Origin: an uncultured Chloroflexia bacterium
GTDB taxonomy: Bacteria; Chloroflexota; Dormibacteria; CF-121
Assembly: GCA_963795805.1 (NCBI GenBank)
Contig: CAWCIV010000004.1
Coordinates: 79,052 to 143,051 of the forward strand
Reading direction: 5' to 3'
DNA: 64,000 nucleotides
Shown here: piece after piece, positions 29,800-45,973 of the stretch
Numbering within the stretch: position 1 is the stretch's first letter
Layout: every line of letters starts with the position of its first letter
Made by a program: the position numbers and the translations under genes
Notes under the pieces: generated by a model
What the model saw: only the letters and a program-made list of their open reading frames with translations
Database searches by the model: none
What the model was told of the DNA's origin: nothing

Positions 29800-30762
29800 A
29801 TGCGCGCCGACGATTTCGTGACCCGCCGGCGGCCGGAGTGGGAACGGCTGGAGGCACTCCTCGGCAGGACCGGGACCAGTCGGTTCGGCGGGCTGCGTCC
29901 GACCGAGGTCCTGGCGCTCGCGGGCCTTTACCGGCGGGCGACCGCCGACCTGGCTCGAGCGAAACGTGACTGGCCGAACGCGCCGGTGGCCGGATACCTC
30001 AACGGGCTGGTGGCACGCGGCCATGCCGCCGTCTACCAGTCAGGCGGCAACCTCCGGCAGCGGATCGCGACCTTCTATGGCCTGACGCTCCCGCAGACCT
30101 ATCGCGCCTCGGGTCGATACATGCTGGCGGCGGCGGCCTTGCTGTTTGGGCCGGCGATCATTGCCTTCATCGCGATCCGGCTGGACCCGCGGCTTGCCTA
30201 CGCCCTGGTCCCCGCCCAGATTGTCCAGCTGGTTCACAATCACCAGCTCTGGACGCAGATCCCGGCGTCGGAGCGGCCGCTGATGGCCGGCGTGATCATG
30301 ACGAACAACATCAATGTCTCGATCCTGGCCTTCGCCTTCGGCGTCCTGCTCGGACTCCCCACGATCTACATCTTGATGACCAATGGGATCCAGCTCGGCG
30401 GCCTGCTCGGCCTGACCAGCGCCTACGGCATCGGTGGCGGCCTGCTGGATTTCGTCATCGCGCACGGCGTGATCGAGCTGTCGGTCGTGGTGGCGGCCGG
30501 CGCCTCGGGCCTGATGATGGGCTGGGCCCTCGTCATGCCGGGCGCCTACCGGCGGCGGGACGCGCTCGTGCTGGCGGCGCGCAAATCGGTGATCATCCTC
30601 GCCGGGCTCGCGCCGCTCCTGATCATCGCCGGCATCATCGAAGGCAACCTGAGCCCGTCCACCGCGCCGACGGCGGTGAAGGCCGCGGTTGGCCTGACCT
30701 CAGGCGTGCTCCTCTACACCTACCTGCTGCGAACCGGCCGTCCCAAGCGTCAGCCCGGGTAA
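29800..30762 (+). CDS. SpoIIM / DUF95-family membrane protein
   Basis: EWERLEALL...[25 protein letters not shown] and IIEGNLSP. Confidence 0.9.
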
Positions 30763-32696
30763 GCGGCGAGGAAGATCGGCCCGTTCACGACTTTCTCAGC
30801 GTGACCGTCCGCCCGGACGAGCAGGATCCCATCGACATCGCCGCTCGAGTTGGGGTTTCCCACCGCGACCATGAACGCGGTGCCGTTTGGTTGCGGCAGC
30901 GCCACCACCGGTAGCTGGCCGGTCGCGGCCGGGTTGCCGCCCAGACGCCAGCGCACCGTCCCGCGATGCCAGTCCAGCAGCCTGATTTCGCCCGGCGTTT
31001 GGACCATAAAGGACGGTGCGGTGACGACCAACGATCCATCCCAGGAGAAGGCGATCACCCGCTGATCGGTCAACCGCGCGACGACGCCTCCGTCACTCAG
31101 GCGGCGGATGACCGTCGCCGAGGGACCAGGGCCAAGGTTGCTCTCCGCGACGTAGCGGCCGTCGCGCGAGCCAACCAGCATCTGTGACGAGTTCGTGTAT
31201 GCGTGGCTGTACAGGGTGCGGCCCGTCGAAAGCGCGATCACGCGCACGTCGAGGTATCCGCCCTGCACCTGCTGGCCGAGGATGGCGCGATCCGCCAGGT
31301 CGCTGCAAGCGATCAGCGCGTAGCCGCTCTGGCGTCCAATCGGGCCAAGCGTGACCACCCGGCGCGCGGCGCCCCCGACCTTGCCCACGGCGAGCCACTG
31401 GGTCGGATTCGCGTTGGCGCCACCGGGATCAAAGCCGATCTCGCAATACCGGCCCGGAACATCCGACCAGACCGCGCCGAAGTATTGGCGGTCTGATACC
31501 GCGCGCCCCTGCCGGTCCATCGCGACGCCCGTGCCGTCCATCAATTGGAACCAGGACCCGTCCGCATTCTGGTGCGTGTTCCCACGCGCGTAAACTGAGC
31601 CGACCATCGCGCCGCTCCAGTCGAGGGCGGTGAAGCGAGTCGGGTCGCCGGACGGCGACAGCCACGGGCTGGAGGTCGAGTACCACACCACCGGGACTCC
31701 ATCAGGCGGCGCGCCGGCTTCCGTGAGGAAGGTCCAGGTTCGGTGAATTCGGGCTGTCGGATCGGTCGACCCGACGGTGACGTCAGCGGCGTACTGGGTC
31801 CGCGGCTGGAGATCGGAATAGCGAACCGACCATGTCGCGCCGCTCCAGACGCCGGGCGCAAGCGTCGCCGGCGGCTGCAGCGTGATGACCGGGTCGCTGC
31901 TTGGGCGCCGGCTGAAGCCGATACTCAGCTGGCCGTAGCGCGCGACCGTGCCGGCGCCATCGATCGGTTCCAGCCGAGCGAGTCGTGGCGGTCCCTCGGC
32001 TACGAAGGTCCAGCGTTTGACGAAGTGTCCGGTGTCATGAAGGTGGCTCTGGTACTGCGCGTCCAGCACGAGCTCATAGCGCTGGCCGAAGTGCAGGCCG
32101 CTGTATTCGATGAGGAGCGTGCTTCCGTCCCAGAAGGTCACATGCTGGTTCCCGTCCGAAGGCTGATGCGTGAGCGTCGGCGTGCCAAGCGGGCGGCGGG
32201 CGAACTGAACCCGAAACTGTCCATCCACTCCGACTTCGCGGGCGCCCGCCGGCGGCGCCAGGTCCGAAATCGTCGGCGCGGCGGCTGCCAGCGCGTCCGA
32301 CCGGGTTCGCTGCAGCTGCACCAGCCCCGCGGCGGCAAGGATCAGCACCGCCAGCCCGAGGGCGGTGAGACGGGAGCGGGCCGGCCGCGAGGTGTACTGC
32401 CGATCTTCGACCGCATCCAGGATTCGCAGGTGCAGGTCACGGGAAACGCGCTGGTCTCGTGGCGGAAGCGTCTGCAGGAGCGGGCCCGCCGTCCTGCCAC
32501 CGGCCAGCTTGCGGATCGCCGCACACAGTCTCGACTCGATGTCCTGCCCGCGTGAGGTCAGGACATCGGCAAGGGCCTGCTCGGTGATCCGCTCAGCTCG
32601 TGGCTCGTCCTGAACGAGCGTGCGGGCGTAGCCGAAGACCCGATCCTCGTATTCGCGCACCGGCGCTTCGAACGATTCCCGACTCTGCGGTTCCAG
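30750..32696 (-). CDS. Membrane protein: sigma-region-2-like N-terminus, one TM, two Ig-like domains and a beta-propeller-like C-terminus
   Basis: CTG at 32696, 5 nt after GGAGG. N-terminus [29 protein letters not shown] near residues 110-130. Ig-like repeats end in WTFxT/A. Confidence 0.7.
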
Positions 32697-32727
32697 ATTG
32701 GCCTCCCACCGGGCGATCTACTGACAG

Positions 32728-32753
32728 AACGCAGCCGAGGGTCGGAAGTTACA
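32728..32753 (-). promoter_or_regulatory. Candidate ECF-type promoter TGTAAC-N16-CGTT
   Basis: Matches the AAC-N16-CGT pattern of Bacillus-type ECF promoters. It lies about 30 nt upstream of the CTG start. Confidence 0.35.
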
Positions 32754-32854: not shown

Positions 32855-33937
32855 GTGGCTGAGTCGCTATCTGAGCAGTCGAGCTTCTTGAATCGGCTGA
32901 CCGCATCATGCCTTGGGACATTCGACATGGCCACGATGTACCTCGGCCTGCAGCTGGGCCTCTACCGGTCCCTCACCGACGGTGGCCCAGCCACCTCGAG
33001 CGAGCTTGCTAGCCGGACTGCGACCGTCGAACGCTATGTTCGGGAATGGCTGGAACAGCAGACCGTGACCGGTGTCTTGCAGGTTGAGGACGCCGGCGCC
33101 GAGGCCGTCGTCCGTCGTTACTCGATTCCCACCGCGCACGCCGAGATCCTTTTGGATGCCGACAGCCTGAACTATATGGGCGCCTACCCGCAGCAGATGA
33201 TCAGCACCCTGGCACCCTTGCCTTCGCTCGTGAAAGCCTTTCGCCAGGGTGGAGGCGTACCGTACGAGGCTTACGGCCAGGACTGCCGCGGAGGCATTGC
33301 GGCGGGTAATCGCGTCGCCTTCATCAACCTGCTCGGTAGCAAGTGGTTTCCCGCGATCCCGGAGCTCGACGCCCGGCTGCGTGCCGATCCACCGGCACGC
33401 ATCGCCGACGTCGGATGCGGCTTCGGCTGGTCGGCCATCAGCATCGCCCGTGCCTACCCGCGCGTGCGCGTCGACGGCCTGGATTTGGACGAGTCGTCGG
33501 TGCGTGCGGCGCAACAAAACGCCAGGGACTCGGGCGTCGCGGATCGCGTCACGTTTGCCGTCCGCGATGCGGCCGACCCGGCCCTCACCGACAGGTACGA
33601 CCTCGTCGTCGCCTTCGAGACCATCCATGACATGGCGCGACCGGTGGAGGCGCTCCACGCGATGCGGCGCCTCGCGGCAGACCGCGGCATGGTCCTGGTG
33701 GTCGATGAGCGCGTCAACGAGACGTTCACCGTCGATCCGGGCGACATCGAACGGCTCTATTACGGCTTCAGCATCCTCCATTGCTTGCCCGCCGGGATGG
33801 ACGCCCGACCCTCAGCCGCAACCGGCACCGTCATGCGCCCGGCGACCTTGCGGTCGTACGCCCAGAAGGCAGGCTTCAGGGACATCGAGGAGCTTCCAAT
33901 CGAATTCGACTTCTGGCGCTTCTACCGGTTGTCGTAA
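32855..33937 (+). CDS. Class I SAM-dependent methyltransferase with N-terminal winged-helix domain
   Basis: GLQLGLYRSL, ERYVREWL, ADVGCGFGW and FETIHDMARP. Confidence 0.9.
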   Translation: MAESLSEQSSFLNRLTASCLGTFDMATMYLGLQLGLYRSLTDGGPATSSELASRTATVERYVREWLEQQTVTGVLQVEDAGAEAVVRRYSIPTAHAEILLDADSLNYMGAYPQQMISTLAPLPSLVKAFRQGGGVPYEAYGQDCRGGIAAGNRVAFINLLGSKWFPAIPELDARLRADPPARIADVGCGFGWSAISIARAYPRVRVDGLDLDESSVRAAQQNARDSGVADRVTFAVRDAADPALTDRYDLVVAFETIHDMARPVEALHAMRRLAADRGMVLVVDERVNETFTVDPGDIERLYYGFSILHCLPAGMDARPSAATGTVMRPATLRSYAQKAGFRDIEELPIEFDFWRFYRLS

Positions 33938-43071: not shown

Positions 43072-43097
43072 TACACCGGCCGAGGCGTCGGGGTTCC
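43072..43097 (-). promoter_or_regulatory. ECF-type promoter GGAAC-N16-GTGTA upstream of the lipoprotein gene
   Basis: GGAACcCCGacgcctCGGCCGGTGTA. It shares 19 of 26 positions with the motif upstream of the neighbouring sigma gene. Confidence 0.7.
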
Positions 43098-43113
43098 AGC
43101 CGCCGGGGACGGC

Positions 43114-43881
43114 CTAGTCAGTCGAGTTCGCGAGCGCGAGGGCCGCGGCTTTACTGAGGCCCGACTCGATCCGGATCGTCAACGAGCCCTGATCCCAGAG
43201 CACCGTGTTGCCGGCCAGACGGAACGTGTCCTCCTGGGGCACGCCCTGCGTATCGAGGAAGAAGAAGCCGTGCGGCTTCCCGCCGATCCAGTAGCCCGGG
43301 CTGGCGTTGATGTTGACCGGCTCGAGCGTCGCATCGGGGCCGAGCTCCTTCATGAAGAAGTCGGGTTGAACCCGTCCGGGGAACTCGATCAGCAGCGCGC
43401 CAACGCCCGTCTTCCCGGCCTGCGGCAGATCCTGGCTCGGATTCCAGACGAGCGCCACTGCATGACGATCGACAGGCTGGACGAGGTAGACGGCATCCGG
43501 AGGCCCGAGCGAATGGGGATAGGCAATGGCATACGGCAGCGCACCCTGCGCGGCGGCAAAGGTGCTGGGCTGGCCGAGGTTCAGGCGCTGGCCGGCTGAT
43601 CCACCGCGCGTGCTGCCAGGGGACGCGAGGCTGGGAACGCGCTGGATGAGAACACCCTTCAGTCCAAAGAACCCGGCGATTGCGTCGCGCGTCGTTGGAA
43701 ACGCCAGCAGCGCCCCGATTGCCACGACCAGGATGGCCGCCGCGATCGCGAGACGGCGCGGATCGAAATAGGGTGGGCGGGCCGGCGACAACCGCCGGCG
43801 GACGCTGACCACGAACGCTGGCGTTTCCGGGAACTGGATCGCCTGCCCGAGTTCGCTGAGGCGCTGCTCCAGGTCAGCCAT
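43114..43881 (-). CDS. Putative membrane anti-sigma factor
   Basis: Start overlaps the sigma stop. N-terminal LEQRLSELG..FPETP segment, one TM, and an extracytoplasmic domain. Confidence 0.75.
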   Translation of the reverse strand: MADLEQRLSELGQAIQFPETPAFVVSVRRRLSPARPPYFDPRRLAIAAAILVVAIGALLAFPTTRDAIAGFFGLKGVLIQRVPSLASPGSTRGGSAGQRLNLGQPSTFAAAQGALPYAIAYPHSLGPPDAVYLVQPVDRHAVALVWNPSQDLPQAGKTGVGALLIEFPGRVQPDFFMKELGPDATLEPVNINASPGYWIGGKPHGFFFLDTQGVPQEDTFRLAGNTVLWDQGSLTIRIESGLSKAAALALANSTD

Positions 43882-44434
43882 CGCGGCCTCCCAGTTGCTC
43901 TCGAAGGCGGTCGAGCGCCCGCGACAATCGCGATTTGACGGTGCCTTCCGGCCAACCCAGGACTCCCGCGCTCTCGTCCGATGACAGGTCGAGGAAATAC
44001 CGGCAGGCGATGACAAGCCGGTCCTCATGGCGAAGGGTATTAACGGCACGGAGGAGCTCCGCACGCTCCTCCGTGGCCACGGCCAGGCTCTCGGGTGATG
44101 GGGCCGCACCACCCGTGCCCAGCTGGTCGGCAACGCGCAACGAGAGATCGATGCGGCGGCCCGAGCCGCGACGCTGGTTGCGGGCTTCGTTGGCGACGAT
44201 CTGGAGGATCCACGGCCGGAAGCTCGCGCCCGGGCGAAAGCGGGCAAGGGCGCGGAAGGCCTTGACGAATGCCTCCTGGCAGGCGTCCTGCGCGTCGGCC
44301 TCGGACTGGGCGATCAGATAGGCAGTGCGAAAGGACACGGTTGAATAACGCTCCACAAGTTGCTCGTAGGCGTTGACATCGCCGGCACGCGCTCGATCGA
44401 TAAGCTGCGACTCCTCCAGTGGACGGCCCTCCAC
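43874..44434 (-). CDS. ECF RNA polymerase sigma-70 factor
   Basis: AYEQLVERY...DAQDACQEAF, FRPWILQIVANEARN and GTVKSRLSRA. The start is either GTG 44434 or CTG 44419 (after GGAGG). Confidence 0.93.
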   Translation of the reverse strand: MEGRPLEESQLIDRARAGDVNAYEQLVERYSTVSFRTAYLIAQSEADAQDACQEAFVKAFRALARFRPGASFRPWILQIVANEARNQRRGSGRRIDLSLRVADQLGTGGAAPSPESLAVATEERAELLRAVNTLRHEDRLVIACRYFLDLSSDESAGVLGWPEGTVKSRLSRALDRLREQLGGRDG

Positions 44435-44456
44435 CGAGTTACTACCCTGCGATCTA

Positions 44457-44482
44457 TACACCGGCCGCGCTACCGGCGTTCC
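44457..44482 (-). promoter_or_regulatory. ECF-type autoregulatory promoter GGAAC-N16-GTGTA
   Basis: GGAACgCCGgtagcgCGGCCGGTGTA, with identical spacing to the copy at 43072-43097. Confidence 0.7.
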
Positions 44483-44485
44483 GTT

Positions 44486-45973
44486 CTAGGCGCCCAGTCC
44501 CCTGATCGCGGCTTCGACGGCCGCGCGTTCGTCCCACGGCTGCTTTCCGCGACCCACCAGGATGCTTCGCTCATGTCCCTTGCCGGCTAAGAGAATGGTG
44601 TCCCCGGGTGCCGCGCGGCGGACCGCATGGGCGATCCCCTTTTGCCGGTCTTCGATGCGGGCATAGTTGACGCCGACCTTCCAGCCGACCTCTTCGGCGC
44701 CGGCAGCGATCTCGTCGAGGATCACCCCGGCGTCTTCCTCGCGCGGATCCTCGTTGGTGAAGACGGCGTAGTCGCTGAGACGGGCCGCGATCTCGCCCAT
44801 CCAGGGCCGCTTCTCTCGATCGCGATCGCCTGCGCTCCCGAAGACGGCGATCAGCTTGCCGCTGGTCACCGGCCGCAATTCGCGCAGGACCTTTTCCAGG
44901 CTCTGTGGGGTGTGGGCGTAGTCGATGATGACGGCGAAGGGCTGGCCGAGATCGACCCGTTCCATCCGGCCACTGACGCCGGTGTAGGTCTCGAGACCTT
45001 TGCGGATCTCGTCGAGGGAGAGGCCGAGCGCAATGCCGGTGGCCGCGGCCGCGAGCGCGTTGGCGGCGTTCCAGCGCCCACTCACGGCGAGGTGGAACGC
45101 CAGCGGGCCGAGTGGCGTGGTCGCCTCGACCTGGAGGCCCTCGGCCGACGGCTCCACCCGCTGCGCCTTGAGGTCGGCATCGAGCTGGACGCCGTAGGTC
45201 ATCTGCCGCGCGATCGGCCGGCGGACGAGGTAGCCGTAGCTCGGGTCGTCGCGGTTCAGAATCGCGGTCTTTGCCAATCCCTTCGGCGCACTCTGGGCGG
45301 TGAGATCGATCAACGATGCCTTCGCCTCGCGATACGCCTCGATGGTCCGGTGGAAGTCCAGGTGCTCATGGGCGATGTTGGTAAAGACGGCGACGTCATA
45401 GTCACAGCCGCTCACCCGCTGCAGAGCCAGCCCGTGCGAGCTCGTTTCGATGACGACGTCCTGGATGCCTGAATCGCGCATCCTGGCCAGCTGCTCCTGG
45501 ATCTCGAGGGCCTCGAGCGTCGTCTGCCGTGAGTCGTTGGCGTTGATCTCCGTGCCGAGGCGGATGTCAACGGTGCTCATCGATCCGGCGCGCCGGCCAC
45601 TGCTCAGCAGCATGTGCTGGATCATGGTGGTGGTGGTGGTCTTGCCATCCGTCCCCGTCACGCCGATGACCACCATGGCCCGCGTCGGATGATGGAAGAA
45701 CGCGCTCGAGATCAGGGCCAGCGCACGCCGGGTGTCGGCGACCACCACCTGCGGCCAGGCGGTCCCGGTTTGTCGCTGCACCACGGCAACCGCGGCGCCG
45801 TCGCGGAGGGCCGTCTCCACGTAGCGATGGCCGTCCGTGTGCTCGCCGGGAATGGCGACGAAGCAATCGCCCGGGCGCACCCGCCGCGAGTCGTAACAAA
45901 CCCCGGTCACGTCGGGGTCGGCGGGCGGCGCTTCGATGACGGCGACGCCCGCAAGCAACTCGCTCAGCTTCAC
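44486..45973 (-). CDS. murE: UDP-N-acetylmuramoyl-L-alanyl-D-glutamate--diamino acid ligase
   Basis: GVTGTDGKTTT, ETSSHGL, FTNIAHEHLDFH, DYAHTP and LLAGKGHE. Confidence 0.96.
   Translation of the reverse strand: MKLSELLAGVAVIEAPPADPDVTGVCYDSRRVRPGDCFVAIPGEHTDGHRYVETALRDGAAVAVVQRQTGTAWPQVVVADTRRALALISSAFFHHPTRAMVVIGVTGTDGKTTTTTMIQHMLLSSGRRAGSMSTVDIRLGTEINANDSRQTTLEALEIQEQLARMRDSGIQDVVIETSSHGLALQRVSGCDYDVAVFTNIAHEHLDFHRTIEAYREAKASLIDLTAQSAPKGLAKTAILNRDDPSYGYLVRRPIARQMTYGVQLDADLKAQRVEPSAEGLQVEATTPLGPLAFHLAVSGRWNAANALAAAATGIALGLSLDEIRKGLETYTGVSGRMERVDLGQPFAVIIDYAHTPQSLEKVLRELRPVTSGKLIAVFGSAGDRDREKRPWMGEIAARLSDYAVFTNEDPREEDAGVILDEIAAGAEEVGWKVGVNYARIEDRQKGIAHAVRRAAPGDTILLAGKGHERSILVGRGKQPWDERAAVEAAIRGLGA

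Follow-up and report, generated by a model that had tools for sequence, protein, structure and literature searches.

Complete extracytoplasmic function (ECF) sigma factors fused to anti-sigma-like membrane parts are already known, namely the sigma/anti-sigma hybrids IutY of Pseudomonas putida (ECF243) and the actinobacterial groups ECF48, ECF52 and ECF53, for example SCO4117 (PMC8999054). These proteins keep both σ2 and σ4, and are thought to be proteolytically released as sigma factors. One class of sigma mimic is known as well, PhyR, the anti-anti-sigma factor of the alphaproteobacterial general stress response; PhyR is a soluble protein with σ2- and σ4-like halves and a receiver domain, and binds NepR in trans after phosphorylation. 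In SigO-RsoA of Bacillus subtilis, the σ2-type and σ4-type parts are on separate polypeptides (PMC7826278). Anti-sigma factors of classes I and II use a membrane-near helix (helix 4 or the second helix) on a flexible linker to bind regions 2.1-2.2 (PMC7406223). Here we describe a gene (the target) on the minus strand of a 64,000-nucleotide stretch of contig CAWCIV010000004.1 (the window), from an uncultured Dormibacteria soil bacterium known as a metagenome-assembled genome (MAG). Its product is a single-pass membrane protein that joins part of a σ2 domain to an anti-sigma-type helix and an ectodomain of immunoglobulin (Ig)-like and β-propeller domains. In the literature searched, we found no description of a σ4-less sigma/anti-sigma fusion, nor of a conserved protein in which only the anti-sigma-binding half of σ2 remains, fused to the anti-sigma factor. 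Both halves have recognizable homologues, the ECF-type promoter is conserved, and the sigma remnant is under purifying selection. Our favoured reading, to which we give about an even chance, is that of a self-occupied pseudo-sigma/anti-sigma receptor, still ECF-controlled, whose ectodomain would be the working part.

Homology of the two halves to sigma and anti-sigma factors

The first ~48 residues of the protein are, by profile comparison, homologous to ECF sigma regions 2.1-2.2. A hidden Markov model (HMM) of the family (116 columns, 12 full-length members) matches nine ECF sigma factors among the 25,034 open reading frames (ORFs) of the bacterium's own genome, always on region 2, with best E-values of 1.9e-9, 1.6e-8, 5.9e-6 and 1.1e-5. 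These four best matches belong to one ECF subgroup, which has the N-terminal motif D-R-S/A-W-F-E/D-P-L (‘DRSWFEPL’ type, hereafter DRSWF-type). The same subgroup includes P0037, the best match from outside the family (E = 1e-11) in a scan of 1.84 billion representative proteins. All ten further non-family matches that were tested carry Sigma70_r2 and are sigma-sized, and eight of them also match region 4. Alignment of the family with 15 ECF sigma factors in hhalign gave a probability of 98.8% (E = 8.4e-17, 75 columns), and a reciprocal HMM derived from the σ2 domains of true sigma factors finds the target with an E-value of 6e-9. Against PDB sequences, the family alignment matched SigE of Mycobacterium tuberculosis (2.3e-4) and the σ2 domain of Streptomyces coelicolor SigR (1.7e-3). 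When the family HMM was split, all significance lay within the first 50 columns, which correspond to regions 2.1-2.2.

Only family profiles succeed in detecting this relationship. A single-sequence phmmer search with the N-terminus against the own-genome ORFs returned no sigma factor, and an NCBIfam scan of the target gave only a sub-threshold hit to the sigma-70 model TIGR02985. The profile comparison was clear against the ECF alignment but negative in the Pfam scan, which returned Big_5 only and no Sigma70_r2. A Foldseek search with the N-terminal model gave a best E-value of 2.7, with ECF sigma factors or PhyR accounting for eight of its 24 weak matches. An initial annotation of the window, made by eye, had likened this N-terminus to region 2 of both sigma factors in the window. 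The homology to ECF region 2 holds, but only the sigma factor at 43877-44485 was matched, and weakly (E = 0.0034).

The same annotation had found no region 4, and neither a σ4 HMM nor Pfam Sigma70_r4 detects one on the target, whose cytoplasmic part comprises only ~110 residues (aa). The determinants of -10 recognition in region 2.3/2.4 (W-L..., N...D..R) are absent as well, and the helix at this place reads LE.RL.A..RKLA. In ECF region 2.2, the acidic residues of the DAED motif are reported to be required for β′ binding (PMC8999054). The fourth position of this motif is R, H, Q, P or L in 16 of 16 family members, compared with E or D in all seven DRSWF-type sigma factors, which makes the earlier suggestion of a decoy for core RNA polymerase unlikely. 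Within its own genome, the target is the only σ2-positive, σ4-less ORF besides a frameshifted gene on another contig. In that DRSWF-type sigma gene (C1:11612-13693, outside the window), σ2 and σ4 (C1:11661-12170) lie in different frames, and the σ2 frame continues into a downstream anti-sigma gene with a BNR/Ycf48-like propeller. Whether genuine or due to mis-assembly, this frameshift mimics a σ2/anti-sigma fusion.

From the juxtamembrane helix to the C-terminus, the target is homologous to a genuine anti-sigma factor, as judged from sequence alignment, in agreement with the anti-sigma-like segment noted initially. BLASTP aligned the protein with the 500-aa anti-sigma factor encoded at the orthologous locus L030 (E = 2e-78, 35% identity), beginning at residue ~81-88 (~81 in the CTG-start numbering explained below) and running to the C-terminus. 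The L030 anti-sigma factor is composed of two short cytoplasmic helices, a transmembrane (TM) segment, one Ig domain and a propeller. Its second, juxtamembrane helix aligns with helix 4 of the target, in which L, H, I, D, E and Q are invariant. Pfam and NCBIfam models at E <= 10 identified no recognised anti-sigma family (ASDI/zf-HC2, RskA, FecR and similar) on the target. The description as a sigma/anti-sigma chimera thus stands, on the strength of the profile statistics and of the parent-like operon at L030.

The AlphaFold2 (AF2) model of the protein (predicted local distance difference test, pLDDT, 84) contains helices at residues 13-34, 38-54 and 60-72, a coil at 73-92, a helix at 93-109 and the TM helix at 119-146, followed by two β-sandwich domains and a large β domain. 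The Ig-like sandwiches match domains A and B of LdtMt2 in Foldseek with E-values of ~1e-9, and the propeller has two invariant cysteines, C425 and C471. Together with the Pfam match to Big_5, these data bear out the earlier outline of one TM helix, two Ig-like domains and a propeller.

The third helix could have come from either the sigma or the anti-sigma half. The hhalign sigma alignment continues through it as region 2.3/2.4, and in the AF2 model it completes a σ2-like three-helix bundle (root mean square deviation of 1.7 Å from SigW over 66 columns, not significant). An HMM of the third helix only, however, scores higher on anti-sigma N-termini than on sigma 2.3/2.4 segments, its scores on true 2.3/2.4 segments being about zero or negative. 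Moreover, hhalign against seven anti-sigma factors aligned the third helix to their first helix (probability 60%, E = 9e-5 for the whole cytoplasmic domain), while a comparison of the N-terminal alignment with a four-sequence anti-sigma alignment gave no match.

Start codon, promoter and distribution of the gene

A gene call with a canonical start places the target at 30750..32660 (GTG, 636 aa), with its stop codon at 30750-30752 and the frame open to 32717. We predict instead that translation initiates at a CTG codon further upstream (Table 1), because aligned homologues start with M-E-P-Q/R-(S/A)-R-x-S-F-E-A-P, which matches this codon, and because the CTG and its Shine-Dalgarno sequence are kept at L002, in a genome of the same genus (69% identity), where the GTG of the window is replaced with GTT. 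Between the two sequences, the 12 codons from CTG to GTG differ by two synonymous and no non-synonymous changes. At L031 the equivalent start reads GGAGGG-N5-CTG, and at L029 an ATG occupies the position of the CTG. We attribute to this non-canonical start the truncation of database entries P0003, P0004, P0005, P0007, P0009 and P0011-P0013, which are N-terminally short by 28 to 87 alignment columns and miss part or all of the sigma-like domain; in P0005, for instance, the L002 gene has been called with an internal Met as its start. As gene callers trim the sigma-like domain, the family is hidden among ‘hypothetical’ or ‘Ig-like domain’ proteins. The DRSWF-type sigma genes of ECF-A (C2:229698 region) and of L030 (1936-1938) also seem to start at CTG, which follows a strong Shine-Dalgarno sequence, GAAAGGGGG or GGGAGG. 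The interval from the promoter to region 2.1 contains no canonical start in these sigma genes, which are shortened or given a wrong start in gene calling. Initiation at CTG may be characteristic of the DRSWF sigma lineage and may have passed from it to the fusion gene.

The upstream element TGTAAC-N16-CGTT, reported in the initial annotation, is present at 32753-32728. GTAAC-N16/17-CGTT occurs at the equivalent site in seven of eight orthologous loci, which represent two genera and several metagenomes; the promoter at L033 is degenerate, with only the -35 element kept. The exact motif has five copies in the own genome versus an estimated ~1.6 expected from base composition. It also immediately precedes the DRSWF-type ECF operons ECF-A and ECF-B, as well as a lipoprotein gene followed by a third ECF/anti-sigma pair; the anti-sigma factor of this pair has the same propeller. 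Given its position and conservation, the target gene is very probably ECF-dependent. One motif match in the same-genus genome G191 was dismissed as intragenic. We also rejected the other ECF module of the window (43.9-44.5 kb) as the driver of the target, since its motif differs; GGAAC-N16/17-GTGTA is located at 44457-44500 and 43072-43110 on the minus strand, upstream of that module's sigma and propeller lipoprotein genes.

Proteins related to the target ectodomain recur in the genome. The propeller is similar to the whole ectodomain of anti-sigma-A, encoded downstream of ECF-A on contig C2 (BLASTP E = 7e-21, 29% identity), and the six propeller paralogues in the own genome comprise two anti-sigma factors, two lipoproteins, one further protein and the target. 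Several of them cluster around ECF-A (C2:223099-231166), where a lipoprotein gene (231166-230075), ECF-A, anti-sigma-A, a propeller protein gene (227994-226516) and a second lipoprotein gene (223099-224184) are found. On contig C4, a lipoprotein gene with TGTAAC-N16-CGTT is paralogous to the C-terminal ectodomain of anti-sigma-B (C4:1281500-1282114 and C4:583243-584799). The similarity covers the last 100 residues of the lipoprotein and the end of the ectodomain (42% identity, E = 4e-18), and the same lipoprotein and motif are conserved in G191 (L028). Paralogy between putative regulon proteins and anti-sigma ectodomains is thus seen twice in the own genome, for the target and for this lipoprotein.

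In the window, the target is monocistronic, flanked by a methyltransferase gene that diverges from it and a SpoIIM-like gene that converges on it. The gene order MoxR, DUF58, target, SpoIIM-like, RDD, DUF2203 and aminotransferase is conserved, except for a variable insertion point that in the window holds the methyltransferase-like gene (32855-33937, plus strand), between the DUF58 gene and the target. This slot is empty at L004, L029, L032 and L033, contains MarR and a luciferase-like gene at L031, and contains a sigma/anti-sigma pair at L030. There, the DUF58 gene is followed by a TGTAAC-N16-CGTTGTG promoter, a DRSWF-type sigma gene whose product is nearly identical to P0037, the anti-sigma gene, a GTAAC-N17-CGTT promoter and the target orthologue (P0019). 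In the seven other loci the orthologue is an orphan with no adjacent sigma gene, and comes directly after the MoxR/DUF58 cluster or after a small insert specific to its lineage. The closest relatives of the two halves of the target are thus adjacent genes directly upstream of the L030 orthologue, which suggests an origin by tandem duplication of a sigma/anti-sigma operon, followed by in-frame fusion with deletion of σ4.

The protein family is small and restricted to one lineage; among 201 sampled genomes of the phylum, four have it, and these four belong to a single family. The earlier annotation had proposed looking for homologues with the same architecture. Such homologues form at least 16 clusters (50% identity) and come from NCBI, JGI, ENA and Logan contigs that are independent of one another, and orthologues with identities as low as 38-39% retain the invariant N-terminal residues. 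A word-based homologue search with residues 8-125 found the domain in no other architecture. The dN/dS ratio (non-synonymous to synonymous substitution rates) is 0.21 overall, 0.17 for residues 1-48, 0.29 for the linker and 0.10 for helix 4, and these values indicate purifying selection on the sigma remnant. The presence of the target is uncoupled from that of the parent sigma type, as far as the compared genomes tell. The gene is present in G191 and G128, of the same genus, which have no DRSWF-type sigma factor (the best match there belongs to a different type and shares 29% identity), and it is absent from G017, which has a DRSWF-type sigma factor (a 90%-identical ECF-A). No obligate co-occurrence of the target with DRSWF-type or ECF-C-type sigma factors was found. 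The genome of the window shares the 90%-identical ECF-A and a 67-69%-identical ECF-C with genomes of another genus (G017:C37:37637-38146, G137:C17:30316-30834), and the two same-genus genomes are without close copies of either; these sigma modules seem either to move between genomes or to be lost quickly.

Table 1. Predicted features of the target gene and its product (window coordinates)
Feature	Coordinates	Strand	Basis or remark
ECF-type promoter	32728..32753	-	Read directly; TGTAAC (-35, 32748-32753), 16-nt spacer, CGTT (-10, 32728-32731)
Shine-Dalgarno sequence GGGAGG, 5 nt upstream of CTG	32702..32707	-	Arrangement repeated in L002 and L031
CTG initiation codon, non-canonical	32694..32696	-	Homologues start M-E-P; CTG in L002 and L031, ATG in L029
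Whole coding sequence	30750..32696	-	648 aa and stop codon
Sigma-derived segment, ECF regions 2.1-2.2, two helices	32553..32696	-	HMM, hhalign, PDB matches, AF2; RAER replaces DAED-type motif
Third helix, origin ambiguous: degenerate sigma 2.3/2.4 or first anti-sigma helix (veLEeRL motif)	32502..32540	-	hhalign, HMM
Flexible linker, poorly conserved	32442..32501	-	AF2 coil (residues 73-92), low conservation, dN/dS 0.29
Juxtamembrane anti-sigma-type helix (helix 4), acidic, most conserved cytoplasmic element	32391..32441	-	BLASTP, conservation, charge
Single TM helix	32313..32369	-	Sequence, AF2 helix 119-146; RPARSR on cytoplasmic side before TM
Two tandem Ig-like (Big_5/LdtMt2-type) domains, outside membrane	31713..32279	-	Pfam PF13205 (E = 9e-7), Foldseek
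C-terminal β-propeller (TolB/YVTN-like)	30753..31712	-	Foldseek: TolB, YVTN, Lp49

Possible functions of the fused protein

On the favoured reading, an ancestral operon consisting of a DRSWFEPL-type ECF sigma factor and a single-pass anti-sigma factor with Ig and propeller ectodomains would have been duplicated, and an in-frame deletion in one copy would have joined sigma helices 1 and 2 (regions 2.1-2.2) to the anti-sigma factor. This deletion would have removed regions 2.3/2.4 (probably), the linker and σ4, but not the sigma gene's 5′ end with its unusual CTG start and the promoter before it. The remnant would no longer bind RNA polymerase and would instead serve as a built-in partner of the juxtamembrane helix, so that the cytoplasmic domain would be a closed complex in which the remnant is paired in cis with helix 4, electrostatically insulated from the parent sigma and anti-sigma factors. 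The remnant and helix 4 lie in one chain with a 20-residue coil between them, and the AF2 model of the N-terminal part is a compact four-helix cytoplasmic domain (predicted template modelling score 0.74; pLDDT ~90 for helix 4). The mean net charge of the region 2.2 segment is -1.75 in the family versus -3.4 in true sigma factors, and that of helix 4 ranges from -1 to -4 in 20 of 20 members versus 0 to +4 in seven of seven true anti-sigma factors. These opposite shifts are in keeping with two elements that have co-adapted within the chain and become insulated from the parent proteins. The target would then not be a transcription factor but an ECF-induced envelope receptor with the propeller and Ig ectodomain as its active part. 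Its most plausible role would be to compete with the paralogous anti-sigma ectodomains for an envelope ligand or a protease, which would provide feedback; we infer this competition from the analogous case of the lipoprotein and anti-sigma-B. Alternatively, the ectodomain could have an envelope role of its own.

Several points weigh against this picture. That helix 4 touches the remnant in cis is inferred and not seen, and the charge comparison covers seven true pairs and concerns net charges, not mapped contacts. Foldseek returned no significant match for the small helical domain. The polar face of helix 4 (H, D, E, Q) is strictly conserved, which hints at a partner besides the remnant. The third helix is assigned differently by the hhalign comparison with sigma factors and by the helix-only HMM, and if it is a σ4-binding anti-sigma helix, some anti-sigma activity could remain. 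The pair that resembles the parents adjoins only one of the eight orthologues examined, so that this arrangement could be secondary. Motif counts in four relatives equal those of a reversed-pattern control, with no genome-wide enrichment, and the promoter argument therefore rests on position and conservation rather than on number. Finally, no sigma factor could be assigned to the promoter in G191; those MAGs are 91-94% complete.

The remnant might alternatively act in trans, as an anti-anti-sigma factor that, possibly freed by regulated intramembrane proteolysis, binds the σ2-binding helix of an anti-sigma factor and releases an ECF sigma factor, which would make it a PhyR/NepR-like partner switch operating by proteolysis or at the membrane. 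We regard this as unlikely, even though it heads the alternatives. It would explain why the remnant is under purifying selection and keeps regions 2.1-2.2, the surface bound by anti-sigma helices (PMC7406223), and it would draw on the ECF promoter that the gene has in common with the ECF-A and ECF-B operons and on the sigma/anti-sigma pair next to the L030 orthologue. PhyR provides a precedent for degenerate sigma domains as decoys, and Pfam PhyR_sigma2 matches occur on related sigma factors. As the target gene itself is ECF-induced, such a mimic would create positive feedback. However, the tethered helix would compete in cis, and since region 2.2 is less acidic than in true sigma factors and the helices of true anti-sigma factors are neutral to basic, the affinity of the remnant for these anti-sigma factors should be below that of a real sigma factor. 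The gene also persists without the parent sigma type and is missing from one genome that has this type, and with no σ4-like part the remnant has half of PhyR's equipment. For the matching charge change in the tethered helix and the uncoupling from the parent sigma type, the anti-sigma decoy proposed in the initial annotation is not favoured. The fuller version, in which an envelope signal perceived by the Ig and propeller domains (through a conformational change or proteolysis) frees the remnant to capture an anti-sigma helix or to block a sigma-binding site, is to our minds rather doubtful; if true, it would amount to a membrane-bound single-chain partner switch, a mode of ECF control that has not been described so far.

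Another rather improbable alternative is a working anti-sigma factor, in which the third helix binds σ4 and helix 4 binds σ2 in a class II-like manner, and the remnant tunes affinity or stability. Here the strong homology to a genuine anti-sigma factor from helix 4 onwards, the sigma-dependent promoter (as for anti-sigma genes in autoregulated operons), the preference of the third-helix HMM for anti-sigma N-termini over sigma 2.3/2.4 and the hhalign match from the third helix to the TM segment (probability 60%, E = 9e-5, seven anti-sigma factors) are set against an orphan gene in seven of eight loci, a third helix that hhalign and AF2 place in the σ2-like bundle, the absence of any match to Pfam or NCBIfam anti-sigma models and the lack of coupling to DRSWF-type sigma factors. 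In addition, helix 4 is acidic and region 2.2 of the candidate partner sigma factors is strongly acidic, a charge pattern that argues against binding of a parent-type sigma factor. It is very unlikely that the protein is half of a split sigma factor, i.e. a σ2-like fragment released from the membrane to join a separate σ4-only protein, or a sigma factor without σ4, as had initially been considered. A split ECF sigma factor does exist in B. subtilis (SigO-RsoA, PMC7826278) and the σ4 HMM gave a few σ4-only matches in the own genome, but these proteins are long and score weakly, as is typical of other helix-turn-helix families, and no convincing σ4-only partner gene was found among them, nor was one adjacent in any locus. 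The acidic core-binding residue is lost in 16 of 16 members, and the conserved residues of region 2.3/2.4 (W, N..D..R) are absent along with σ4. Least credible of all, and close to negligible, is an artefact or decaying pseudogene, the product of a recent collapse or mis-assembly of a sigma and anti-sigma pair with a functionless N-terminus. The frameshifted sigma gene on C1, which runs in frame into its anti-sigma gene, and the many database entries without the N-terminus would be in line with it. The truncated entries are accounted for by the CTG start, however, the dN/dS ratio of 0.17 and the invariant N-terminal residues in orthologues of 38-39% identity speak for a maintained domain, and a collapsed gene pair is contradicted by the occurrence of the architecture in at least 16 clusters, on independent contigs from four sources.

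Comparison with described sigma mimics and fusions

If the favoured reading of a complex locked in cis is correct, a sigma/anti-sigma pair would have been retired into a self-contained receptor that is still part of an ECF regulon, and its interface, with charges swapped by nature, could serve as a guide when orthogonal sigma/anti-sigma pairs are designed. If the remnant acts in trans, it would represent a new regulatory principle.

Like IutY and the ECF48/52/53 proteins, the target combines a sigma-derived N-terminus, a TM segment and an extracytoplasmic sensor in one polypeptide, descended from or equivalent to a fused sigma and anti-sigma factor. Unlike in the IutY/ECF52 type, only regions 2.1-2.2 are recognisable, with σ4 absent and the acidic residue for core binding lost. 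The gene of RsoA, a small soluble protein, adjoins that of its partner, whereas the target, a membrane receptor of 648 aa, has no σ4 partner gene in its vicinity. With PhyR, the target would share a degenerate sigma-like domain that has no function in transcription and engages an anti-sigma helix pair. It differs from PhyR in consisting of half a σ2, in its membrane anchor and in having the anti-sigma-type helix in the same chain, and it has no receiver domain, no σ4-like part and no Pfam PhyR_sigma2 match. The juxtamembrane helix on a flexible linker is reminiscent of class II (CnrY-like) anti-sigma factors and of helix 4 in class I, and from this helix to the C-terminus the target is homologous to the anti-sigma factors encoded downstream of DRSWF-type ECF genes. 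In contrast to CnrY-like and class I anti-sigma factors, however, the target carries its sigma surface covalently attached, its helix is acidic, and in most loci its gene stands apart from any sigma gene.

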